A stretch of 64,000 nt of DNA from an uncultured Bdellovibrionales bacterium (GTDB lineage Bacteria; Patescibacteriota; Minisyncoccia; Moranbacterales; UBA1568): the NCBI GenBank assembly GCA_964488025.1, contig CAZATJ010000003.1, positions 4,294 to 68,293 on the forward strand. The letters run 5' to 3'. Position numbers and translations under genes: made by a program. Numbering within the stretch: position 1 is the stretch's first letter; the number at the start of each line of letters is the position of its first letter. Below the pieces are notes generated by a model, which made no database searches, was not told the DNA's origin, and was given only the letters and a program-made list of their open reading frames with translations. Positions 1,529 to 53,814 of the stretch are shown here, piece by piece.

Positions 1529-2884
1529 ATGGCTGGAAGTAAAACCGATCACTTGCGCGTTCCCCCACATAACCTGGAAGCCGAAGCCTCGGTCCTCGGG
1601 TCGCTTATGCTCGATAAGGACGCCATCATCAAGGTGGCTGATCTTTTGAAGGTGGGAGATTTTTATAAAAACGATCATAACTTCATCTACGAAACCATGC
1701 TCGCCCTCTACGAGGAGCGCGAACCAATCGATGTCCTTTCTTTGTCCAACAAGCTTGAAGAGAAAGGCCAACTTGAACGGGTTGGCGGATCAAGTTACTT
1801 GGCATCGCTCGTCAACACGGTACCCTCAGCCACCAACGTCGTGCATTACGCCAAGGTTGTTCAGAAAAAAACACTCCTGCGCCGCCTCATCGCCGCCGCA
1901 AGCGATATCGTCGAAATGGGCTATGATGAATCGGAGGATGTTCAGAAACTCCTCGACGAAGCGGAACAGAAAGTTTTTGCCGTTTCTCAAAAATATATCA
2001 AGCAGGACTTCGTCCCCATCAAATCCATCCTTGAGGTAGCCTTCAACCGTATCGATGAACTCCACAAGAGCGACCATGCTTTCCGTGGAGTCCAAACTTT
2101 TTATCCTGACCTCGATAATCTCTTGGCCGGCTTGCAGAAATCCGATCTGCTTATTTTAGCGGCTCGACCATCGGTCGGGAAAACCACCTTCGCTCTCGAT
2201 ATTGCTCGCCAGGTCGGCGTCCATGGCAAGGTTCCGGTCGGTATTTTTTCTCTCGAAATGGGATCGGATCAACTGGTAGATCGCATGATTGCCGCTCAAG
2301 CCGGAGTGGATTTGTGGCGCCTGCGTACCGGCAAGCTTTCCAGTGAAGGCCCGGACAATGACTTCGAAAAAATTTCCGATGCCATGGGCGTGCTGTCTGA
2401 GGCACCGATATTTATCGACGACAGCGGCTCGCTCAACATCATGGAGATGCGCACCATGGCCAGGCGTCTCCAGGCCGAACACAATCTCGGGCTCATCATC
2501 GTCGACTACCTCCAGCTCATGGAAGGACGTAGTTCCAAAGGCGACAACCGAGTACAAGAGATTTCGGAAATTTCCCGCGGATTGAAACAGCTCGCCCGCG
2601 AACTCAATATTCCCGTCATCGCCCTTTCTCAGTTGTCCCGTGCCGTCGAATCCCGCCCCGATCAGATTCCGAAGCTTTCCGACTTACGCGAATCCGGTTC
2701 TATCGAACAGGATGCTGACGTGGTCATGTTTCTCTATCGTGAAGATCGAGTGAAACCCGATACCCCGAATAAGAACATTGCTGACATTATCGTGGCCAAA
2801 CACCGTAACGGTCCGGTTGGTAAGATCTCGCTCTATTTTGAGGAAAACTCAACCACGTTCAAATCACTCGAAAAAGCCCACTAG
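1529..2884 (+). CDS. dnaB: Replicative DNA helicase DnaB
   Basis: The N-terminus reads VPPHNLEAEASVLGSLMLD. Walker A is GKT, Walker B is IIVDYLQLM, and a RecA-like C-terminus follows. The ATG at 1529 (MAGSK) is the preferred start; the ORF track begins at 1499. A TATAAT sits at 1494-1499. Confidence 0.9.
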   Translation: MAGSKTDHLRVPPHNLEAEASVLGSLMLDKDAIIKVADLLKVGDFYKNDHNFIYETMLALYEEREPIDVLSLSNKLEEKGQLERVGGSSYLASLVNTVPSATNVVHYAKVVQKKTLLRRLIAAASDIVEMGYDESEDVQKLLDEAEQKVFAVSQKYIKQDFVPIKSILEVAFNRIDELHKSDHAFRGVQTFYPDLDNLLAGLQKSDLLILAARPSVGKTTFALDIARQVGVHGKVPVGIFSLEMGSDQLVDRMIAAQAGVDLWRLRTGKLSSEGPDNDFEKISDAMGVLSEAPIFIDDSGSLNIMEMRTMARRLQAEHNLGLIIVDYLQLMEGRSSKGDNRVQEISEISRGLKQLARELNIPVIALSQLSRAVESRPDQIPKLSDLRESGSIEQDADVVMFLYREDRVKPDTPNKNIADIIVAKHRNGPVGKISLYFEENSTTFKSLEKAH

Positions 2885-2887
2885 ACT

Positions 2888-3484
2888 ATGCAGTATCCAA
2901 AAGCTTTTCAATCACTCATCGCGCACTTTTCAGCCTTGCCGTCAGTCGGACCCAAGATGGCGGAACGGATTGTTCTCTATCTGTTCAAGCAGGACGCGGA
3001 GAAGCTGCAAAGTTTTGCCGAAAGCCTGGAAGAACTTCCCCGACTGAAAAGCTGCACCCGCTGTTTCCATATCGCCGAAAGCGAGTTGTGCTACATCTGT
3101 GCCGACACGAGGCGTGACACCACGGCCCTCTGCGTGGTCGAGGAACCGCTTGATGTCATCGCTCTCGAACGGATCGGCATCTATTCCGGCTTGTACCATG
3201 TCTTAGGTGGACTGCTCGAAAGCGGGAAAAATGATAATAGCGGAAACCTGCGTATCAGTGAGCTTCTCGAGCGTGTCCGTAATGACAAAATCAAAGAGGT
3301 GATTCTCGCTACCAACCCGACCACCGAGGGCGATCTGACGGCTCTCTACCTCAAAAAGAAGCTTGAGCCTACTGGAGTCAAAATTACCCGTATTGGAAGA
3401 GGTTTGGCAACAGGCGGTGATATCGAATATGCCGACGAAATCACTCTCAGTGCTGCCTTGACAAATCGCAAGGAGCTGTTATAA
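2888..3484 (+). CDS. recR: Recombination protein RecR
   Basis: It has the C4 zinc finger CTRCFHIAESELCYIC and a Toprim domain. It is adjacent to dnaB. Confidence 0.88.
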   Translation: MQYPKAFQSLIAHFSALPSVGPKMAERIVLYLFKQDAEKLQSFAESLEELPRLKSCTRCFHIAESELCYICADTRRDTTALCVVEEPLDVIALERIGIYSGLYHVLGGLLESGKNDNSGNLRISELLERVRNDKIKEVILATNPTTEGDLTALYLKKKLEPTGVKITRIGRGLATGGDIEYADEITLSAALTNRKELL

Positions 3485-3522
3485 TAACAACATCCTCAAC
3501 ACCTCGATGAAGGGAGACGGAT

Positions 3523-3690
3523 ATGCCGGAGAAGCTCGGTATGATTCCCTACGAACCGCACATGGGGGCAGGTTTTGTTCCATACGATGCCATCGAGTGG
3601 CACATGGAGCAGCAGCAGTGGCTGGCAGCGGCTCCTGAACCTGTCAAGCAAAGTGAAGTCAAAGAAGCCCCTCCAGTTCAATCGGAGTAG
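3523..3690 (+). CDS. Candidate small protein (55 aa), unknown function
   Basis: A strong SD (AAGGGAGA) sits 7 nt upstream of the ATG. It translates as MPEKLGMIPYEPHMGAGFVPYDAIEWHMEQQQWLAAAPEPVKQSEVKEAPPVQSE. It is absent from the ORF track only because it falls under the size cutoff. Confidence 0.3.
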   Translation: MPEKLGMIPYEPHMGAGFVPYDAIEWHMEQQQWLAAAPEPVKQSEVKEAPPVQSE

Positions 3691-3751
3691 CTTCCGAACG
3701 CGAGGTTCCGAGACAATGTCCGGAACCTTTTTCATTTTCATGTAATCGAAC

Positions 3752-9571: not shown

Positions 9572-10612
9572 TCATGAGGGAAGCGATGAGAGGTGTTCTG
9601 GAGTGATAGCTCCAATCATGGCATCCACATCACTTTGAAACAAGAGCCCCGCGATTGCTCCGTAAAATCCGACAACGCTGCCGCTGTTTGCCATGCCATA
9701 GCGGAGCGCTTCCGGAAGGGTTTTCCCCATCAAATGCGCCGCAAAAAATCCCGACGTGAAGGCGTCACCAGCACCGGTGCTATCGACGACTTGGCTCCGC
9801 GTATGGATCGGACAAAACCAGTATGCTTCACCGTCATAGCCCCAGGAACCGCGCCTTCCATCAGTCATACCGATAATCTTCGCTCCAGCAGAATGAAGTT
9901 TTTCCAAAAGAAACAATTCGTCATTGAGCGATTCATCACTTGGTCTCGGGACAGATTGTGAGAGGAGTTCTATCGCCTCATCCTTATTGAGAAGGAGGAC
10001 GTCCACCGATGGCAGGGATTCAAGAACAAGTTTCGGATCATCTTTTATGTTGTGTTGACCGGGATTGAGAGCCAGAGAGAGTCCAAATTTTTTCTTCGCC
10101 TGCAAAAGGGTAGCGAGGTTCTTTTTCCAGTCTCCGTTTAAGGCACTCACAAAAAGCCAAGTGGCGGACGCCAGTTTCTTTTCCTCCACACAGAGGCGCT
10201 CATTGGCATCACGATTATGAAAAATGGTTCGCTCGCCACTTTGCGTAAGTACGATAATGGCGGAGAGGTCCGTTTTGGCATCATCGTAGCGAGTAAGGAG
10301 ACTCGTATCCACTCCTTCTTTTTTGAGCGAATCCGTAATGAAATTTCCCACTTCATCATTTCCAATACAACTGTAAGTCGCTACGCTCTTTCCGAAGCGC
10401 GCCAGTCCGACTGCCACGTTCCCCGCCACACCACCTAGTGCCTCAAAACGATCTTCGACGCGATATTTTCCTCCCAATTCGAAAGCAACTTTCTGCTTGG
10501 CGGTAATATCCTCCGGAGTATCGATTACTATTCCTTCGGCAGTTGGAAAAAAAATATCTTTCGATACGGAACCAACACAGATAACCTCAGGATTTTTTGT
10601 ACGAAACCACAT
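9572..10612 (-). CDS. PfkB-family carbohydrate/nucleoside kinase (ribokinase-like)
   Basis: It carries the PfkB signature DSTGAGDAFTSGF and a Gly-rich N-terminal motif. Confidence 0.75.
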   Translation of the reverse strand: MWFRTKNPEVICVGSVSKDIFFPTAEGIVIDTPEDITAKQKVAFELGGKYRVEDRFEALGGVAGNVAVGLARFGKSVATYSCIGNDEVGNFITDSLKKEGVDTSLLTRYDDAKTDLSAIIVLTQSGERTIFHNRDANERLCVEEKKLASATWLFVSALNGDWKKNLATLLQAKKKFGLSLALNPGQHNIKDDPKLVLESLPSVDVLLLNKDEAIELLSQSVPRPSDESLNDELFLLEKLHSAGAKIIGMTDGRRGSWGYDGEAYWFCPIHTRSQVVDSTGAGDAFTSGFFAAHLMGKTLPEALRYGMANSGSVVGFYGAIAGLLFQSDVDAMIGAITPEHLSSLPS

Positions 10613-21078: not shown

Positions 21079-22965
21079 ATGCTCCCCATAAAAAACTATC
21101 AGGGTTTATTAGTCTTCGAAAGAAAGGATAAGGTGCATCTTTTTTGGCGTTCGACCGAAAAATCCGTTCCCGGTATTTTTTCCGTGGAAAGCAACGATGG
21201 TAAGAAGTTCAAAAAACACGCTTCTTTCACGGCCCTCTTCCGTGCCGATGGCACCAAAACAATTCTCGGCAATGCTCCAGCTCTCCGCGCCAGTACTCTC
21301 GGTACCAAAACAGTTCTTTTTTTTATCGACAACAACAATCAGGGAGTCCTCGCCACCATACGACGAGGCGATTCATGGGATATCGCGGCTGAAATACCCC
21401 TGTTCCGCAGCCCGACTGTTTTCGTCAAGCTCCCAGCTAAGGCTGGGAAAAAGCCTGTTGTTATCGCTTTTTCTGCCCGTAACAGCAAGACAATCTTTCA
21501 GGCTCATGCTTCCGACATACTGAAACATTTCCGAGATGTCGGAGATGTCCTCGAAGCGAAACGGGGCGCCTTCGATACTTCCACCCTCCTTCCGCTCTCT
21601 GCCGAAGTCATTCCTCAGGGGATACTACTTGTTTATTCAGCCAAAAATCCAGCTGGAAAATTAACAGTCGGAGCCGCTCTTTTTGATCGGGAGCATCCCA
21701 AAAAACTTCTCTGGCGGAGCGAAAGAGCTCTTTGGGAGGCGCCAGTGAAAACATCATCGGATACTACTGTACTCGGCGGCGTTTCCATCGGAAAATACTT
21801 TTTCATCTACATTCAGTCTCGAGGGAAACCCATCGAATGTTTCCCTATCGCCCGTTACTGGGAAACGATTGCCAAAAATGAGCCAAATAAGCTCGTACTG
21901 CCCCGACGCAAGAAGGGTATACGCATACCACTCGAGCGCTCCCTGGCAAATCCGGTTCTGGAACCCATCACTAAAAATTCCTGGGAGGCGTTCGCCACGT
22001 TCAATCCGGCCGCCCTATGCCTCGATGATCGGGTACACCTTCTCTATCGTGCCCAAGGGTATGATGGACTTTCTGTCCTGGGGTATGCTTCGAGCTCCGA
22101 TGGCATCCACATCGATGAGAGGCACAGTCATCCAGCATTTATTTCTTCCCGCCCCTTCGACATCAAAGAATCCACAGCCCGTAAGAGCGCTCATCCTTAT
22201 GTTTCCGGAGGCGGTACTAGCGGCTGTGAAGATCCTCGCCTCGTAGCGATTGACGGCTCCATATATCTCATCTATATCGCCTTTGACGGAAACAACCCAC
22301 CCGGTGTCGCCCTCTCCTATATCTCGAAAGCGAACTTTCTCGCAAAACACTGGAAATGGTCTCAACCAAGACTCATTTCACAACCCCGGCAAATTCAAAA
22401 AAACTGGGTATTGTTCCCAGAAAAAATAAACGGCAAGTATGCCATACTTCACGGCTTGAGCCCGAAAATACGAATCGAATACGTCGATGATCCGAAAAAA
22501 CTCGGTCATGGAAATCATGTCGAAAGCCTCTCTTCCCACGGTGGAGGCGGCTATATCGAATCAAAACGCCTCAATGCCTGGGATAACATTGTCCGAGGTG
22601 TCGGGGCTCCACCGCTCAAAACAAAGTATGGCTGGCTTATCTTCTATCACGGCATGGATATGCGTGATCCGGGAAAATACAAGGTCGGCGCCATGCTTCT
22701 TGACCTTGAACACCCGGAAAACATTCTCTACCGCGCCGTAGAGCCGGTACTCGAACCGGAAACGGATTATGAAAACAACGGACATAAACGGGGCGTCATC
22801 TATGTCTGCGGCGCCGTAATCAAAGGGAAGAAACTTCTCGTCTACTATGGTGCCGCCGATCGCACCTCAGCTGTCGCTTCGTCCGATCTTGAGACGTTCT
22901 TGCAAGACCTCCTCAAAAACAAAACACCCGTTCTCCAAAAAATGAACGTCACCAAGAAATCTTAA
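21079..22965 (+). CDS. Two-domain protein with a divergent N-terminal domain and a C-terminal GH130-family (PF04041-like) beta-propeller domain
   Basis: The C-domain has NPVLEPI..WEA.ATFNPAAL..D.RVHLLYRA, GCEDPRLV and YYGAAD. These are hallmarks of glycoside hydrolase family 130 / mannoside phosphorylase-like proteins. Confidence 0.65.
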   Translation: MLPIKNYQGLLVFERKDKVHLFWRSTEKSVPGIFSVESNDGKKFKKHASFTALFRADGTKTILGNAPALRASTLGTKTVLFFIDNNNQGVLATIRRGDSWDIAAEIPLFRSPTVFVKLPAKAGKKPVVIAFSARNSKTIFQAHASDILKHFRDVGDVLEAKRGAFDTSTLLPLSAEVIPQGILLVYSAKNPAGKLTVGAALFDREHPKKLLWRSERALWEAPVKTSSDTTVLGGVSIGKYFFIYIQSRGKPIECFPIARYWETIAKNEPNKLVLPRRKKGIRIPLERSLANPVLEPITKNSWEAFATFNPAALCLDDRVHLLYRAQGYDGLSVLGYASSSDGIHIDERHSHPAFISSRPFDIKESTARKSAHPYVSGGGTSGCEDPRLVAIDGSIYLIYIAFDGNNPPGVALSYISKANFLAKHWKWSQPRLISQPRQIQKNWVLFPEKINGKYAILHGLSPKIRIEYVDDPKKLGHGNHVESLSSHGGGGYIESKRLNAWDNIVRGVGAPPLKTKYGWLIFYHGMDMRDPGKYKVGAMLLDLEHPENILYRAVEPVLEPETDYENNGHKRGVIYVCGAVIKGKKLLVYYGAADRTSAVASSDLETFLQDLLKNKTPVLQKMNVTKKS

Positions 22966-22975
22966 TCATCACCCT

Positions 22976-24901
22976 ATGTCTTTTTTCAAGCGATCATTCG
23001 AAAATCCGATACTCGTCCCTCAGAGTGACCTGCCCTGGGAACTTGATGGCGCCTTTAATGGCTGTCCTATCCGCGAAAAAGGCAAGACTCGACTCTTTTA
23101 TCGAGCCCAATCCCTGCCGCTGCTTCATGAGGATGGTCCATGGCTTTCCATCTCTTCTATCGGTCAAACAGAAAGCCAAGACGGTATCCATTTCAAGCAG
23201 CACCGACCCTTTATCGAGCCAGAACTGCCGTGGGAACGTTTCGGGTGCGAAGATCCGCGCATTACCAAGTGCGACGGTAAATACTACCTTTTCTACACGG
23301 CACTTTCTGAATTTCCTTTCCGTGCCGAAGGTATTTCCGTGGGTCTCGCCATCACTAAAGACTTCAAACGCGTAGAAAAACATCACATCACACCTTTCAA
23401 TGCTAAGGCCATGACACTTTTCCCTGAACGCATCAATGGAAAACTCTGGGCCATCCTTTCTGCCAACACTGACCGACCGCCCTCCACGATCGCACTCGCA
23501 TCGTTCGATCAAGAATCCGATCTCTGGGATACGGAACGTTGGCATACCTGGTATAAAAATCTTGAAAAACACGGTCTCGAACTGAGCCGAAACGATGAAG
23601 ATCACGTCGAAATCGGGGCACCGCCTATCAAAACAAAAGAAGGCTGGCTCCTGCTCTATTCCTATATTCAGAAATACCACTCGCCGAATCCCATTTTTAC
23701 CGTCGAGGCGATATTGCTCGCGCTCGATAATCCGAAAAAAATCATCGCTCGCACCAGTGCTCCACTTCTCGTTCCGGAGGAAGAATACGAATACTATGGC
23801 AAAGTAAAAGATATCGTGTTTCCGAGTGGCGCGGTCGTCCGCGGCGACACTATCTTTCTCTACTACGGCGCAGCTGATACTACCACATGCGTGGCAACAG
23901 GCAGCCTGAAAAAACTCCTCGAATCTATGCTGGAGAAGAAGGACCAGCGCCCCACCTTCAGCCGTTATCGAAAAAACCCCATTCTCGAACCTATTGCAAA
24001 ACACGATTGGGAAGCCAAAGGGGTCTTTAATCCTGCTGCCGTCGATGTCGACGGAAAAGTTCATATCCTGTATCGCGCCGTTTCAGAAGATGATACCTCG
24101 GTGTTCGGTTATGCCGAAAGCAAGAATGGTTTCAAAATTTCAAAACGACTCCCGGATCCGGTCTATATGCCACGAGCTCCCTTCGAACAGAAACAGGCTC
24201 CGGGAAATTCCGGGGTCGAAGATCCCCGACTGACCCGTTTCGGTGACACCTACTACATGCTCTATACGGCCGTCGATGCAGTCACACCTCCACGGGTAGC
24301 CCTCACGACTATTTCGGCTAATGATTTTCTGGCTGGACAGTTTAATGCGTTTAGTCCGCCAGTGCTCATCTCCCAACCCAATATTGATGATAAAGACGCC
24401 TGCCTTTTCCCTGAAAAAATCGGTGGGAAATATGTCATTCTCCACCGTATCCAACCCGCTATCGATATCAATTTCCTTGATAGTCTCGATTATCTCGATG
24501 GACAAACCGAATTTCTGACTCATCAGCCTTTCATTTTCCCGCGTCGCGGGATGTGGGACAGTCGAAAAATAGGTATCAACACTATCCCTCTGCGAACTGC
24601 CAAAGGCTGGCTTATCCTGTACCACGGCGTTTCAGAATACGACGGCCACTATCGTATCGGGGCCCTCCTTCTTGATTTGGAACACCCGGAACGGGTCATT
24701 GGCCGTAGCCGTTATCCCATTTTCAGCCCCGAAACGGATTATGAACGTGTCGGCGTCGTACCCAATGTCGTTTTTCCTTGCGGCGCCATCGTACGAAAAA
24801 GAAAGCTCATCACCTATTACGGCGGAGCTGATCGCGTCATCGGTGTTGCCAGCATTGATTTACCAAAACTCTTGAAGACACTGCTTGCTGACGGAGTATA
24901 G
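22976..24901 (+). CDS. Protein with two tandem GH130-family domains, paralogous to the upstream gene
   Basis: Both halves carry NPIL.P...WE...FN, GCEDPRIT / GVEDPRLT and YYG(A/G)AD. Confidence 0.65.
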   Translation: MSFFKRSFENPILVPQSDLPWELDGAFNGCPIREKGKTRLFYRAQSLPLLHEDGPWLSISSIGQTESQDGIHFKQHRPFIEPELPWERFGCEDPRITKCDGKYYLFYTALSEFPFRAEGISVGLAITKDFKRVEKHHITPFNAKAMTLFPERINGKLWAILSANTDRPPSTIALASFDQESDLWDTERWHTWYKNLEKHGLELSRNDEDHVEIGAPPIKTKEGWLLLYSYIQKYHSPNPIFTVEAILLALDNPKKIIARTSAPLLVPEEEYEYYGKVKDIVFPSGAVVRGDTIFLYYGAADTTTCVATGSLKKLLESMLEKKDQRPTFSRYRKNPILEPIAKHDWEAKGVFNPAAVDVDGKVHILYRAVSEDDTSVFGYAESKNGFKISKRLPDPVYMPRAPFEQKQAPGNSGVEDPRLTRFGDTYYMLYTAVDAVTPPRVALTTISANDFLAGQFNAFSPPVLISQPNIDDKDACLFPEKIGGKYVILHRIQPAIDINFLDSLDYLDGQTEFLTHQPFIFPRRGMWDSRKIGINTIPLRTAKGWLILYHGVSEYDGHYRIGALLLDLEHPERVIGRSRYPIFSPETDYERVGVVPNVVFPCGAIVRKRKLITYYGGADRVIGVASIDLPKLLKTLLADGV

Positions 24902-24916
24902 AAAAGACTAAAACAG

Positions 24917-24950
24917 TAAAAGAGGCCCCACTTCAAGGGACCTCTTTTTT
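24917..24950 (+). terminator. Rho-independent terminator after the GH130 pair
   Basis: agaggcccc...gggacctct hairpin followed by tttttt. Confidence 0.55.
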
Positions 24951-25046
24951 GGTGGACCACATCCTACTCAGTTGGAACTGTATTATAGCAGAACTCTCGG
25001 CTTGGCAGGAACTCGGCATGGCTATTGAGCAGGCTCAGCCAACGCA
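24951..25046. repeat. Repeat R1 (~95 bp), copy 1 of 2
   Basis: It is about 78-80% identical to 25991-26087 by hand alignment. It lies immediately 3' of the minus-strand gene 25047-25508. Confidence 0.7.
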
Positions 25047-25508
25047 TTAAACTAAAGATAGGTCGCCACTGATGATCTGAGGATGCATTCCAAGAATCTC
25101 TTGTTTGTAGGACAGCTCAGACGATACTGGATTTAAAATATAGATCTTCTTCTTCAAATAGAAAGCGACTCCGATTTCAATCAAAGTATTACCACCGACA
25201 TAACCGTTAATACCTCTTTTTTCGTGGTTGACGACCAAAATTCCATCACACCAGTCAATTTTTTCATAATGATCATTAATAGCCCCTTCTTTCATATTCC
25301 AAATCTTGTGTCCTACTGGAAACGCATCAATACCACCATTCTGTTCAATGTATTGACCGAAATAAACTTTCTTGCCACCCCCAAATTCTTTCGGTACTTC
25401 GAGAGCAAGTTCTGGAATTTTGACTTCGTGACCTTGTTTTACTAGTTCGTCTCTAGCTGATTCCATTTCTTTATAAAATCCAATGCTACCGCAAATTGTT
25501 ATTTTCAT
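25047..25508 (-). CDS. Nucleoside 2-deoxyribosyltransferase-like (Rossmann-like) protein
   Basis: It starts MKITICGSI and later reads DGILVV...GGNTLIEIGVAFYLKKKIYIL. This matches the pattern of the NDT/DNPH1-like fold. The family assignment is tentative. Confidence 0.45.
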   Translation of the reverse strand: MKITICGSIGFYKEMESARDELVKQGHEVKIPELALEVPKEFGGGKKVYFGQYIEQNGGIDAFPVGHKIWNMKEGAINDHYEKIDWCDGILVVNHEKRGINGYVGGNTLIEIGVAFYLKKKIYILNPVSSELSYKQEILGMHPQIISGDLSLV

Positions 25509-25510
25509 AA

Positions 25511-25972
25511 TTAAATAATTTTAAGTTCTTTCAACCACTCATACCAAACCGGCTCAAGCCCAGGCGATTTCTCCCAATCATCGTGGCTGATATCTCCACG
25601 AACATACTCCTCAGTTTTGACTGCGAGTAGTAATAAATCATCTTTTTTACAAAAAATCGCCTGCTTTGTTTCGTCATTACTTCTTTTTACCTCGCCAAAG
25701 ACTTCAATCTGATAGATTTTCCAATAGTGCCAACTTCCACCTTCGCGCCTACAAATGTTTTCTTTTCGTCCCTCAGTTAAAAGTTTTATATTCTGTGCCT
25801 CCAGTCCGACCTCCTCCTCTAACTCTCTTTTTGCTGATTCTTCAAAAGAATTATCTCCATCAATATGGCCAGCTGGTGGCGCAAAACCAAATGGCGGTTT
25901 TTTCCTTTCTATAAGCAATAAACTACCCTCTCTCCAAACTAACATTCCTACACTGGTATGATCACATTTCAT
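25511..25972 (-). CDS. NUDIX hydrolase
   Basis: The Nudix box is GHIDGDNSFEESAKRELEEEVGL. Confidence 0.8.
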   Translation of the reverse strand: MKCDHTSVGMLVWREGSLLLIERKKPPFGFAPPAGHIDGDNSFEESAKRELEEEVGLEAQNIKLLTEGRKENICRREGGSWHYWKIYQIEVFGEVKRSNDETKQAIFCKKDDLLLLAVKTEEYVRGDISHDDWEKSPGLEPVWYEWLKELKII

Positions 25973-25990
25973 AAGGAGACTTGATAATTT

Positions 25991-26087
25991 TGTGGACTAC
26001 CTCCTACTCAATTGGAACTCTATCATAGCAGAACTGCGGGATTGGCAGGAATTGGGGATGGCTATAGAACAGGCTCGGGCAGGGTAG
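25991..26087. repeat. Repeat R2 (~95 bp), copy 2 of 2
   Basis: It is an imperfect direct repeat of R1. It lies immediately 3' of the minus-strand gene 26110-26916. Confidence 0.7.
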
Positions 26088-26109
26088 CTTTCCTACTTCC
26101 TCTACCATT

Positions 26110-26916
26110 TCAAACTCCTTTTTCATCATCAGTTTTTAGGTCCTCCTTAGCCTCCTCAACATAGTCTGCCAATTTCTTTTTCCATTTCTGTCTTGCTAAA
26201 TCATACTGAGATGGTAGATAACTTTGGTTGCTATCTTTCCTTTGTTCCGGTCGATCTAAATACACACGACGATTCTGAGTATCAAGATAGATATCGGTAT
26301 CCCCTTTCAATATTCTTGTGTTCGGTCCGGCGAGCACTACGGGTTCGAATCCTAAAACTTTTTGACAAATTTCACTGAGAAGTTTAACGGATTCCTTATA
26401 CTTTTTAAACCAAATATCTTGGCCACCAAAAATGACTGCATCGATAGAATTGTCAGCAGAAAGCTCTTTGAGTTCATTTATTCGTTTAGATAAATCTCTC
26501 CGGAACCGATCTTGATATTTACCAGAAATGGCTTTAGGATCTTGATGGCTTAAAAAAGAGATTTGTTTCTCTGTATCTCTCTGTGTTCCCACTAATATTA
26601 CACCCGTACAGTCAATGTAGTTCTGCGAAAATTTATCTTTATCATCACAACCTGAAATGATATAGGTCTTTTTATCTGGACTCACCATTGTGTCTCTGGA
26701 GCTTTCTGGAAGCCAAAAGAAATCTACGTTCTCCCCTCGATTCATGATACGCAGCATTGCTTCTGTGGATTGACTATCTCTATCGTAAGAATCAACAATA
26801 GAAGCCATAATAGGTCGAACACCCTCGGCAAGATGTTCATTGTGGAGAGGGTTTATTTCTTTTGCTTTTTCTCCTTCTGGTTTCTTTTTCCCTGCTTCAG
26901 AAAAGACTTCAAACAT
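26110..26916 (-). CDS. Hypothetical protein (268 aa), no recognisable family
   Basis: It is a long ORF that fills the interval. No motifs were recognised. Confidence 0.4.
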   Translation of the reverse strand: MFEVFSEAGKKKPEGEKAKEINPLHNEHLAEGVRPIMASIVDSYDRDSQSTEAMLRIMNRGENVDFFWLPESSRDTMVSPDKKTYIISGCDDKDKFSQNYIDCTGVILVGTQRDTEKQISFLSHQDPKAISGKYQDRFRRDLSKRINELKELSADNSIDAVIFGGQDIWFKKYKESVKLLSEICQKVLGFEPVVLAGPNTRILKGDTDIYLDTQNRRVYLDRPEQRKDSNQSYLPSQYDLARQKWKKKLADYVEEAKEDLKTDDEKGV

Positions 26917-26940
26917 AATAAATTTGATATATTACTTTTG

Positions 26941-26972
26941 TGGACCTGGGGAGAATCGAACTCCCGACTCAG
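26941..26972 (-). pseudogene. tRNA 3'-half-like fragment (T-arm plus acceptor 3' strand)
   Basis: The minus strand reads CTGAGTC-GGGAG-TTCGATT-CTCCC-CAGGTCC-A. It is complementary to the 5' half at 27105-27138. Confidence 0.5.
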
Positions 26973-27002
26973 TCCCGCACCTTTGGATCTTTATAAAATT
27001 TG

Positions 27003-27073
27003 TGGACTTACCGGGAATCGAACCCGGAACTCAGCAATGCGAATGCTGCGTGATACCATTTTACTATAAGCCC
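27003..27073 (-). tRNA. tRNA-Ala (anticodon CGC), 71 nt, CCA not encoded
   Basis: Folded by hand. The acceptor GGGCTTA/TAAGTCC includes a G3:U70 pair. The anticodon stem is CAGCA/TGCTG with loop TTCGCAT. The T-arm is CCGGG-TTCGATT-CCCGG. Confidence 0.8.
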
Positions 27074-27104
27074 AAATACAGACCGAAGATTCAAAGGTGC
27101 GGGA

Positions 27105-27138
27105 CGAATGCTGCGTAATACCACTTTACTACAGGCCC
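27105..27138 (-). pseudogene. tRNA 5'-half-like fragment (acceptor 5' strand, D-arm and anticodon 5' stem)
   Basis: The minus strand reads GGGCCTG-TA-GTAA-AGTGGTA-TTAC-G-CAGCA-TTCG. It pairs with the 3' fragment at 26941-26972, including a G3:U70 pair. Confidence 0.5.
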
Positions 27139-27146
27139 TCAAAAAA

Positions 27147-28136
27147 TCACTTCTCGCGATAGGAGGTTCTCAACTTCATTTCCCTTTCAAACCGCTCCAT
27201 AGAAAGCTCGATGAGTCTGGTGAGAAGTTCCGCATAAGAAAGTCCGCTCGCCTCCCACAGCTTGGGGTACATGCTGATAGTGGTGAATCCTGGCAGGGTA
27301 TTGATCTCATTGACGAGAATCTCTCCGTTTTCCTTCAGGAAAAAATCAACTCGACCCAGACCCTCACAAGAGAGAACTCGGAATGTCTGACGGGCGATTT
27401 CTCGTATCCGTTCTGCCGTTTCTTCAGGGAGTCTGGCTGGTATTTCAATATCCGCACCATCCTGGTCAAGATATTTGGCCTCGTAGGAGTAAAAGCCTTT
27501 TTTCGGCACCACTTCACCGAGAATAGAGGCTTGCGGATTCTCGTTTCCAAGAACAGCACACTCTATTTCCCGCCCGATGATACCTTCCTCCACCAGAACC
27601 TTTGTATCATACAAAAAGGCATCTTTCAAGGATTTTTCATACTCTTCGGCATTCTCCACCCGGTGTACGCCCACCGACGAACCAGCATTAGCTGGTTTCA
27701 CGAAGCACGGGATGCTGATATTTCTCACAATCTCATCGAAACCCGGCACGGACTTCTTGGTCACCGTCAAAAATTTCGCCACCGGTATTCCGGCATCCCG
27801 AAGCAGACGCTTCATGACGTCTTTATCCATCCCGACAGCCGACCCAAGCACCCCCGCTCCGACAAACGGAATACCGGCCAGTTTGAGCACCCCCTGCACG
27901 GTGCCATCTTCGCCGAAACCGCCATGCAGTACCGGAAAGACGATATCCACCGCCTGACGTAATTCCACTATGCTTTTCTCCGTCAAAAACCCTTCCCCCT
28001 CTTTATCGAGAGGAAGAAGTACGGATTCAAATTTCTCTGGATCCAGGTTGGCGATGACGTTCTTTGCGGACTCAAGCGATACCTCATGTTCGGTCGATTT
28101 TCCGCCAAAAAGGATTCCCACTCTCAGCTTTTTCAT
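27147..28136 (-). CDS. ddl: D-alanine--D-alanine ligase
   Basis: The ATP-grasp N-terminus reads MKKLRVGILFGGKSTEHEVSLESAKNV. Confidence 0.88.
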   Translation of the reverse strand: MKKLRVGILFGGKSTEHEVSLESAKNVIANLDPEKFESVLLPLDKEGEGFLTEKSIVELRQAVDIVFPVLHGGFGEDGTVQGVLKLAGIPFVGAGVLGSAVGMDKDVMKRLLRDAGIPVAKFLTVTKKSVPGFDEIVRNISIPCFVKPANAGSSVGVHRVENAEEYEKSLKDAFLYDTKVLVEEGIIGREIECAVLGNENPQASILGEVVPKKGFYSYEAKYLDQDGADIEIPARLPEETAERIREIARQTFRVLSCEGLGRVDFFLKENGEILVNEINTLPGFTTISMYPKLWEASGLSYAELLTRLIELSMERFEREMKLRTSYREK

Positions 28137-53205: not shown

Positions 53206-53814
53206 TTACTTCTTGGTGGCGAGCGCCGTACGCGTCGCCTGGTCGAGCTTGACCACCGTCGAGCCGTCGAAGCACCAGCCCGTCATGGGACTGCCATTGA
53301 CGTTCTTGGTGGACCACGCCGCCGGATGTCCAGACCAGACGCGCTGGCCGTCCGGCAAGACGCCGACCCAGGTCACGACGCGGCAGCGCTCTTCGCCCTT
53401 CTGGAAGGTCATCGTCACCGCGCCGTCAGCGAGCTTGCCGCTCGCCTTGGCCTTGTCGACCGTGATGGCCATGAGCTCTTCGCTCATTTCGCCCCAGTCA
53501 CGACCGAGGCCCATGGCGTAGATGGTCGTGCCGGCGGGCAACGTGTACAGACTGACTTGCTTCTTCGTCGGCGCATCTTGCGCCTTCTTCATGGGCTTCA
53601 TGCCCTTCAAGTCGGTGAACGAGACGCCGATGACGCCGGTCAGGGTGACGGTGTAGGCATTGTCCTTGACAGCGGATGCCGTCAAGCCGATGCCACCGCC
53701 GCCAGCCGGGTCGTACCCTGCAACACCGGACAGCGGGTCCGCGGCCATGACGGCTGCGGAGACGGAGATGATCGCCAGAGCGATCAGGCTTTTGGGAACG
53801 AACTTCGTCTTCAT
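53206..53814 (-). CDS. Secreted hypothetical protein (high-GC segment)
   Basis: The signal peptide is MKTKFVPKSLIALAIISVSAAVMA. GC is about 60-65%. Confidence 0.5.
   Translation of the reverse strand: MKTKFVPKSLIALAIISVSAAVMAADPLSGVAGYDPAGGGGIGLTASAVKDNAYTVTLTGVIGVSFTDLKGMKPMKKAQDAPTKKQVSLYTLPAGTTIYAMGLGRDWGEMSEELMAITVDKAKASGKLADGAVTMTFQKGEERCRVVTWVGVLPDGQRVWSGHPAAWSTKNVNGSPMTGWCFDGSTVVKLDQATRTALATKK

Follow-up and report, generated by a model that had tools for sequence, protein, structure and literature searches.

A tRNA-Ala locus with two repeats

This article concerns two imperfect direct repeats, R1 and R2, that lie with a few small genes on the 3' side of a tRNA-Ala gene in an uncultured Bdellovibrionales bacterium, placed by its GTDB lineage among the Moranbacterales (Patescibacteriota). 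The window, by which we mean the whole stretch of 64,000 nucleotides that was analysed, is part of contig CAZATJ010000003.1 (assembly GCA_964488025.1), and all coordinates without a locus name are positions within it. Read along the minus strand, the locus opens with the 5' half of an outer tRNA-Ala, which is followed by an insertion bearing a second, inner tRNA, the outer 3' half with its GTCCAC end, a 268-aa open reading frame (ORF), R2 in antisense, a NUDIX gene, a 153-aa ORF, R1 in antisense (ending GGTCCACCA) and a terminator. The array has GH130 and Ddl ORFs as neighbours. GC content is 0.38-0.42 in 25000-27000, compared with 0.49-0.50 on both flanks.

The repeats measure 94 nt (24948-25041 and 25988-26081) and a repeat search of the window aligned them without a gap at 82% identity, close to the 78-80% over some 95 bp given in a preliminary description of this DNA. 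Each R unit belongs with the gene module to its right on the plus strand, in the layout of ORFs plus repeat that the description had recognized: R1 lies 3' of the NUDIX and 153-aa pair, R2 lies 3' of the 268-aa ORF. The cargo of module 1 (25047-25972, minus strand, GC about 0.38; assigned from Pfam and composition) is a NUDIX hydrolase gene at 25511-25972 and the 153-aa ORF at 25047-25508, whose match to Nuc_deoxyrib_tr (nucleoside 2-deoxyribosyltransferase) is weak and falls under the Pfam cut-off (E = 0.025). The cargo of module 2 is the 268-aa ORF (26110-26916, minus strand), which has no family match and whose ATG lies 22 nt off the outer tRNA-Ala's 3' end; Pfam, NCBIfam and PADLOC returned nothing usable for it or for the 153-aa ORF. 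The left flank of R2 is the NUDIX start codon, 19 nt off. Past R1, a terminator scan placed a rho-independent terminator with a 12-bp stem directly beyond GGTCCACCA (24918-24948, minus strand). It is the sole predicted minus-strand terminator in 24700-27300, it also serves the convergent GH130 gene, and it is probably the original trailer and terminator of the tRNA-Ala, displaced to the far end of the array.

At the other end, the outer tRNA-Ala(CGC) is in two minus-strand pieces: positions 41-73 at 26941-26972, ending GTCCA-C with the core abutting the innermost module, and positions 1-35 at 27105-27138, located by repeat search and by alignment to the tRNA-Ala of a related contig, L001. The inner tRNA-Ala(CGC) is complete and occupies 27002-27073 on the same strand (ARAGORN; Rfam tRNA, 60.9 bits).

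The motif GTCCACMAA occurs five times in the window against 0.94 expected, a count that none of 100 shuffles reached. Four of these copies, at 24949, 25989, 26937 and 26999, fall within 2.1 kb, just as the preliminary description had counted them; they are the ends of R1 and R2, the 3' terminus of the tRNA-Ala at 27002-27073 and the tRNA-like 3' piece. A fifth, GTCCACCAA at 53306-53314, sits in a GC-rich and unrelated coding region without any R-like continuation, and we judge it a chance match. What R shares with the tRNA is only GTCCAC(C/A)A(A); the remainder does not align to it. The unit is not a dispersed REP element, since an nhmmer profile of it finds just two copies in the 64 kb. A tRNA pseudogene as the origin of R was considered and ruled out: ARAGORN detected no tRNA in R, Rfam at permissive thresholds returned nothing there, and the likeness by eye amounts to GTCCAC and a loose AAT(C/T)G(G)AAC, which we now read as half-site mimicry rather than descent.

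The repeat as a recombinase gene end

Both repeats are open on the plus strand. In R1 (24952-25050), a TTG precedes the core GTGGAC (24952-24957), after which the frame reads VDHILLSWNCIIAELSAWQELGMAIEQAQPTH and ends at a stop that overlaps the stop of the convergent 153-aa ORF. In R2 (25992-26087), the core (25992-25997) is followed by VDYLLLNWNSIIAELRDWQELGMAIEQARAG and a stop. The frame is kept in five strain variants of R, through one 3-nt indel and many synonymous changes. Among 33 distinct copies of the unit, or stubs as we came to call them, pairwise differences at codon positions 1, 2 and 3 number 2380, 2003 and 3212, respectively.

A protein search with four R peptide variants, concatenated into one query, returned P0001 (E = 1.6e-6 against 5.8 billion sequences) and P0002, both of which end in the R peptide and are, ahead of it, recombinase-like in appearance; the conserved tail reads VDYxLLNWNxIIAELxxWQELG.... 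Of the 73 proteins in the P0001 family, the longer have the domain PF13408 Zn_ribbon_recom and one bears the name 'site-specific DNA recombinase'. A whole gene for a large serine recombinase (LSR) lies at 2152-3748 of a related contig, L016, interrupted by one frameshift. It has the serine motif YTRVSSDEQ in its resolvase domain and, after repair, encodes 522 residues with Pfam matches to Resolvase (3.8e-34) and Zn_ribbon_recom. When this repaired protein was compared with the window by tblastn, the only matches were R2 (residues 488-516, E = 0.012) and R1 (residues 489-516, E = 0.12), and because of this we conclude from homology that R consists of the final ~31 codons of an LSR gene. The assignment of R1 also draws on the ORF list, on the repeat search and on its peptide being that of the P0001 and P0002 C-termini; its match to a profile of the tails (E = 1.5e-17) is to a profile of which R1 is itself a part. 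The tRNA-derived part of the unit is 6-9 nt, and the other ~85 nt are the last 31 LSR codons. The internal sub-repeats that had been pointed out (GCAGAACTC.. and GCAGGAACTC..) exist, as merely two E-L codon pairs of the encoded peptide, and are missing from the other allelic type of the unit. Likewise, the remark that the window holds no integrase is right for an intact gene, although the repeat itself is a piece of one. In an AlphaFold model of a 303-aa family member, the tail forms a terminal helix (282-302) beyond a linker of low confidence (277-282), and is itself modelled with modest confidence.

No member of the P0001 family is full length, the longest of the 73 having 303 aa; the L016 gene has its frameshift and another, L057, an in-frame stop. 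Several independent family ORFs begin at one shared internal Met (MITxEE..., MYGKAI..., MREDGSY...). Intact genes of this family seem to be rare in assemblies. A 557-codon open frame is found in L028 (positions 1-1730 of contig CAZUID010000042.1, from a Saccharibacteria metagenome-assembled genome, or MAG), where the recombinase begins ~499 codons before the crossover and has Resolvase, Recombinase and Zn-ribbon domains. The L028 LSR is only 24% identical to the L016 enzyme. Its tail matches a Moranbacteria stub in L013 over the 54 nt visible up to the contig end, joined at GTGGAC, which suggests that the recombination reaction itself swaps tails between recombinase lineages.

After a conserved ...GFGTAKLG...KSxLVD, the C-termini of the LSR family come in two classes. 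Nineteen members have the native tail (..WN..I..EL..W..L..), and at least 38 end in antisense-tRNA tails, such as PRGIEP..., PRGIEPLSPACKAGALPLSYGP and PSGFEPLTSALQMRRSTN. In the tRNA-fused form of the gene, the join onto the tRNA antisense strand comes exactly after the codons for L-V-D (TTG GTG GAC). GTGGAC is the reverse complement of tRNA-Ala positions 69-74 (G69, U70, C71, C72, A73 and C74), and the octamer singled out in the preliminary description therefore marks the crossover region. The contigs L011, L013, L016 and L028 have native-tail forms, whereas L015 has the tRNA-fused one. In L015, the recombinase remnant at attR reads ...TTGGTGGAC/CCGAGGGGAATCGAACC (...AAATCCGATTTGGTGGAC/CCGAGGGGAATCGAACCCC..., a slash marking the join) into a tRNA-Ala(TGC) that ARAGORN places at 10323-10396 on the minus strand, opposite to the remnant. 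The missing tail is 7.7 kb away, at attL: TGGTGGAC/TATATCC... (...GTATCTGGTGGAC/TATATCCTACTCAATTGG...). Between the two junctions lie cargo genes and an HTH_17 (excisionase-type) gene. The recombinase of L011 is 96% identical to that of L015 and has the native tail (...GATTTGGTGGAC/TACATCCTACTCAATTGG...). L015 is thus a complete attL...attR example for a recombinase with attP inside its own gene. An autonomous element was sought in IMG/VR, where only another decayed attR, L056, turned up.

Among the 33 distinct stubs, hardly any change is seen in the first 27 nt (GTGGACTACNTCCTACTCAATTGGAAC), synonymous sites included; the rest varies. We infer that these 27 nt are the P' half-site, to which the recombinase would bind. 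An outer motif, AATTGGAAC, ends at +27 in R, and a similar one in the tRNA T-arm, AATCGAAC, ends at +22. In LSRs, the zinc-ribbon motif of attB is shifted inward by 5 bp relative to attP (PMC3783163), and the offset between the R and tRNA motifs appears to fit this spacing. The crossover itself probably takes place within GGAC, because a few stubs differ at the first two positions of GTGGAC (ATGGAC, GCGGAC and ACGGAC). Dyad symmetry around the attP core was also looked for; by eye it is weak and centred 3-4 nt to the right of GTGGAC, which is incompatible with the observed junctions. P-arm remnants beside the tRNA are absent from the junctions in the window, and the 3' flank of the L001 tRNA-Ala offers only a doubtful resemblance (~17 of 24 nt in our own alignment).

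Stubs and modules in related genomes

Further copies of the unit were sought in related genomes by two pattern scans, one of representative genomes and one of JGI metagenomes, which gave 39 loci, most of them with a stub. The unit occurs in some 45 other places, in Moranbacteria and other Patescibacteria contigs, always as a stub or as the end of a recombinase gene, and the homology always begins exactly at GTGGAC. Those from organism-named genome collections are mostly from Moranbacteria/Moraniibacteriota MAGs; others are from MAGs labelled Patescibacteria, Saccharibacteria or 'uncultured Bdellovibrionales'. To the left of the core, the flanks of the ~45 stubs are mutually unrelated and of four kinds. 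The first is recombinase coding sequence, that is the unsplit form (L011, L013, L016, L028 and L045). The second, in window R1 and ~12 others, is a terminator hairpin at a distance of 10-15 nt from the core, in keeping with the original tRNA trailer. The third, in window R2 and another ~12, is a gene in the opposite orientation, whose start codon is 3-35 nt off. The fourth, in L039, is a 3' fragment of a tRNA. Stubs are arrayed in twos or threes in L036, L035, L037, L041, L043/46 and L051, and in L025 and L032, a stub, a small cargo and a tRNA-Ala(CGC) follow each other in that order; no LSR body was found in the recombinase-less arrays, L025, L032 and L036 among them.

Some loci have their own peculiarities. 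In L012/L031 (3917-4228 of a Moraniibacteriota assembly, GCA_040006815.1), 4 nt separate the stub from the start codon of queA, a housekeeping gene, and the CTP synthase-L9 surroundings are those of the window; there is no tRNA-Ala nearby, the stub ORF reads through to 96 aa, and it seems that the anchor tRNA was lost or has moved. In L047 (3960-4074) and L055 (6208-6320), a tRNA-Ala(CGC) has its own terminator directly after it and the stub is 1-2.5 kb away, a layout that misfits the simple order of stub, cargo and tRNA. A tRNA-Arg(TCT) stands directly downstream of the recombinase tail or stub in L001 (5341-5413), L029 (1750-1822) and L045 (237-309). In L045, recombinase coding sequence is still joined to the tRNA-Arg(TCT), which looks like the first cargo of one element type.

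Strain comparison gave modules that vary between strains and are bounded by R. Related strains always carry repeats with the modules, and contigs from other samples with the same cargo proteins bring further R variants; in every strain contig, the NUDIX and 153-aa pair stands between two R units. L002 and L004 run collinear with the window as far as 24948 exactly, where a methyltransferase module takes over. In L001, the NUDIX module lies between R1 and another R variant, beyond which come the tRNA-Arg(TCT), a 4.5-kb DUF4238/restriction-modification island that replaces the 268-aa ORF, and an intact tRNA-Ala. The DUF4238 cargo and the tRNA-Arg are each found still attached to recombinase coding sequence, in L011 and L045, respectively. 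The R unit beside the 153-aa ORF in L002 is a mosaic, with an R2-like left half and an R1-like right half, and L006 has a third R combination; it would therefore appear that homologous exchange inside R also moves and reshuffles modules, adding or removing them.

Insertion, scars and their alternatives

We put a probability of roughly 85% on the reading that R1 and R2 are attL scars made of recombinase coding sequence. It is built on matters we regard as established: the coding nature of R and its homology to LSR tails, the exact break at GTGGAC, the two gene ends, the arrangement in L015 and the variation between strains. The attP of the LSR would lie inside the recombinase gene, at the codons for L-V-D (TTG GTG GAC) and ~31 codons before the stop, and recombination with the 3' end of tRNA-Ala would split that gene. 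The body of the recombinase, fused to antisense tRNA, would then form attR, and the last ~31 codons, doubling as the P' half-site, would stay at the distal end of the insert, joined to the sequence formerly downstream of the tRNA, where they would make up attL, that is, the R unit. In the window, the older module would be R1 with the NUDIX and 153-aa genes, pushed outward with the old tRNA terminator beyond it and R1 joined to the old CCA-plus-terminator trailer. The younger would be R2 with the 268-aa ORF, a later arrival between the tRNA and NUDIX. Both modules would be imports, with R1 and R2 marking their borders, and the low GC content of the island speaks for a foreign origin. Serial site-specific insertion at the tRNA-Ala 3' end, with modules differing between strains, had been proposed from the outset, and it survives in outline; what does not survive is the nature of the repeat, which is mostly LSR codons with 6-9 nt of tRNA.

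The recombinase bodies would have been lost later, or never have travelled with the modules of the window. Three routes come to mind. The split recombinase may have been lost and the remainder streamlined; compare the N-terminally truncated remnants of ~95-303 aa and some decayed stubs. Excision from an inner attL may leave outer modules behind, and use of an outer attL may pick modules up, which is consistent with L028. Or the modules may be true recombinase-less cassettes moved in trans, in analogy to integrons. These routes are not mutually exclusive.

Several observations weigh against our reading. The 64-kb window has no recombinase body, no attR junction and no recombination directionality factor (RDF), and it is for this reason that the insertion event has to be deduced from the scars and from relatives, where all the reciprocal attR junctions were found (L015, L056 and at least 38 proteins with antisense-tRNA tails). 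No intact, unfragmented recombinase of the closest subfamily was recovered, and the E-values of the tail profile come from a profile that contains the R sequences themselves. The identity between attP and tRNA is just 6-9 nt, too little to place the crossover dinucleotide exactly. The mosaic R of L002 means that some module differences reflect homologous and not site-specific exchange. Finally, the module genes in the window begin 19-22 nt from the next core (3-35 nt elsewhere), and such tight junctions are not predicted by a simple history of integration followed by decay.

The strongest rival, to which we give somewhat less than even odds, is plain decay. A module would be a full element (R, cargo and recombinase) minus its deleted split gene, streamlined up to the tRNA, and the units would be functionless today, surviving only through being recent or through overlap with gene ends. 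Remnants of the recombinase next to tRNAs are indeed N-terminally truncated to many lengths between 95 and 303 aa (~180 aa in L015, from aa 216 in L058, ~100 aa in L013), stops or frameshifts break some distal stubs (L021-4379, L037-579 and L044), and the doubtful P arm beside the tRNA-Ala of L001 points the same way. Decay alone, however, needs ~1.5 kb to be lost completely, and to end 3-35 nt from the start codon of the cargo, many times independently. It leaves unexplained why the cargo is uniformly co-oriented with the tRNA, and also why the first 27 nt of the stubs are nearly invariant down to their synonymous sites.

The second rival refines our main explanation rather than contradicting it, and we consider it unlikely. 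Here, a unit of core, R and one or more co-oriented genes would circularize and insert at the tRNA-Ala 3' end under the action of an LSR in trans, as integron cassettes do, with the tRNA end as the analogue of attI and R as the sole specific half-site, the analogue of attC; read-through from the promoter of the tRNA would express the genes, and the old terminator would close the array. In at least 12 independent cassettes, 3-35 nt separate the gene start from the next core; in the window, L025 and L032, the distance between ATG and tRNA end is 7-22 nt; and the cargo genes of recombinase-less arrays are all co-oriented with the tRNA. The position of the lone minus-strand terminator in 24700-27300, past R1, agrees with such an array, as do the arrays of two or three stubs without a recombinase body listed above. 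The left arms of the sites are unconserved; any combination of flank, core and tRNA would then have to act as the target. Yet no circular cassette, empty site or active recombinase has been observed, and known LSRs require both half-sites and strict attP x attB pairing (PMC3783163). In L015, the only complete integrated element, the genes point both ways and a recombinase remnant is present; in L047 and L055, the tRNA is followed directly by a terminator despite a nearby stub; and short intergenic spacers are normal in these compact genomes. Taken to its full extent, the idea would be of a serine-recombinase counterpart of the integron in Patescibacteria: recombinase-less cassettes of one or two genes with P' only, stacked at the tRNA-Ala 3' end and expressed from the tRNA promoter, gained and lost by excision from alternative attL stubs, with the swap of the C-terminal helix for a tRNA-antisense tail upon integration serving as a built-in switch of directionality or activity. 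We offer this as speculation, with the odds well against it. If recombinase-less modules were indeed mobilized as cassettes, they would represent integron-like gene capture on a different recombinase family, and a path of gene flow for organisms whose genomes are tiny and streamlined.

A third possibility, which we think improbable, is that R encodes a free-standing small protein of 31-33 aa, duplicated along with its neighbour genes, and that the likeness to the tRNA end is a coincidence. In its favour, each copy is an intact ORF that starts with GTG/TTG, the encoded peptide is conserved and helical by prediction, and AGGAGA lies 12 nt upstream of the R2 start. Against this, the peptide is the C-terminus of longer recombinase ORFs, the homology in every copy breaks off exactly at the supposed start codon and what lies upstream is unrelated (often a terminator hairpin, beside which neither a promoter nor a ribosome-binding site would fit), some copies begin with ACG or GCG, and several are decayed. 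A classical integron attC hairpin, which the preliminary description had entertained, or a REP/MITE-like intergenic repeat would account for one repeat after each module in an array beside a fixed site, yet is very improbable indeed: folding of the two copies gave z scores of -0.18 and -1.88 (minus strand) and +0.41 and +1.10 (plus strand), the structures being neither significant nor alike, a repeat search found no inverted repeat in the unit, there are only two copies in 64 kb, R is coding sequence, and the enzyme concerned is a serine recombinase, with no tyrosine integrase in evidence.

How does the proposed element compare with known systems? In domain architecture, short att sites and the small identity between attP and attB, the R family resembles phiC31, Bxb1, A118/LI and SPbeta. 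These classical LSRs have attP beside the int gene, not inside it, and their target is usually a protein-coding gene. The phage phiRSM, the subject of work by Askora et al. in 2011, reportedly integrates and excises via a resolvase-like serine recombinase, and is said to target a tRNA gene, as an exception among serine recombinases. In 2014, serine integrases were described as being without known tRNA gene targeting (PMC4383910). As in the large serine integrases, P-type and B-type half-sites appear to share an outer motif offset by 5 bp (PMC3783163). Closer precedents for the location of the crossover are Mx8 IntP and the SSV1 integrase, whose att site is within the integrase ORF and whose target is a tRNA gene (PMC4383910; PMC6070905); integration alters the 3' end of the integrase gene in Mx8 (PMC4383910) or splits the gene in SSV1 (PMC6070905). 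The R-family crossover is likewise inside the integrase ORF and has a tRNA target. Mx8 and SSV1, however, have tyrosine recombinases, whereas the R-family enzyme is an LSR with a Resolvase catalytic domain and a zinc ribbon; only its last ~31 codons, the terminal helix after the linker, are exchanged, and the scars pile up as arrays of coding stubs.

Serial integration is itself well known. New elements arriving at the same tRNA push older ones outward, and remnants and cargo remain (10.1101/2020.12.28.424599; PMC4383910). The window resembles Islander tandem arrays and the tycheposons of Prochlorococcus in its serial tRNA insertion and in island content that varies by strain. In those systems, the repeat is a displaced tRNA fragment and the integrases are mostly tyrosine recombinases; here it is recombinase coding sequence with 6-9 nt of tRNA, and the modules in the window are of one or two genes and without an integrase. 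R holds no Islander-type repeat, that is, a tRNA 3' fragment of tens of nucleotides that restores the tRNA. Likeness to integron arrays lies in the co-oriented and apparently promoterless small cassettes, each with one conserved 3' site, next to a fixed site; the layout of the window fits, and the cassettes look promoterless in a consensus scan. Unlike integrons (attI, attC and IntI), there is no attC hairpin and no IntI, the fixed site is the 3' end of a tRNA, and the conserved site is a piece of a recombinase gene. The literature we searched describes no LSR with an intragenic attP and no such coding stubs, which is not proof of absence.

Our reading has practical consequences. A coding stub of ~90 nt starting at GTGGAC would mark each insertion border in the hypervariable tRNA-linked islands of Patescibacteria, even those without an integrase, and could serve as a rule for annotation. 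It would add an LSR lineage with attP in its own gene and a tRNA 3' end as its target, a combination which, among the examples we found, was confined to tyrosine integrases (Mx8 and SSV1). For genome engineering, the family would offer enzymes that target tRNAs naturally, together with a defined P' half-site of ~27 bp.

Two minor features of the window remain to be described. The tRNA 3' fragment had been taken for a duplicated att site and is instead the 3' half of the interrupted outer tRNA-Ala, the 5' half of which is at 27105-27138; it is identical to the corresponding part of the intact tRNA-Ala of L001 (828-901). An insertion of ~130 nt, which holds the inner tRNA-Ala, splits the outer one between positions 35 and 41 and is bounded by a 20-bp inverted repeat (26972-26991 and 27086-27105). 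The nested tRNAs lie at 26941-27138, and the whole, folded over 207 nt, takes the form of a tRNA-in-a-stem, at -80.1 kcal/mol (z = -5.95). The arrangement is unlikely to be an assembly artefact, since the same structure is in the independently assembled contigs L002, L003, L007 and L008. The insertion may represent a small element with inverted repeats whose target is the anticodon loop and which carries its own replacement tRNA. Upstream of the array on the plus strand, at 21079-24901, are two adjacent paralogous genes of the GH130 family (628 and 641 aa), each with duplicated domains, and it is these paralogues that explain the repeat families D2, D6-D8, D10 and others in the window.

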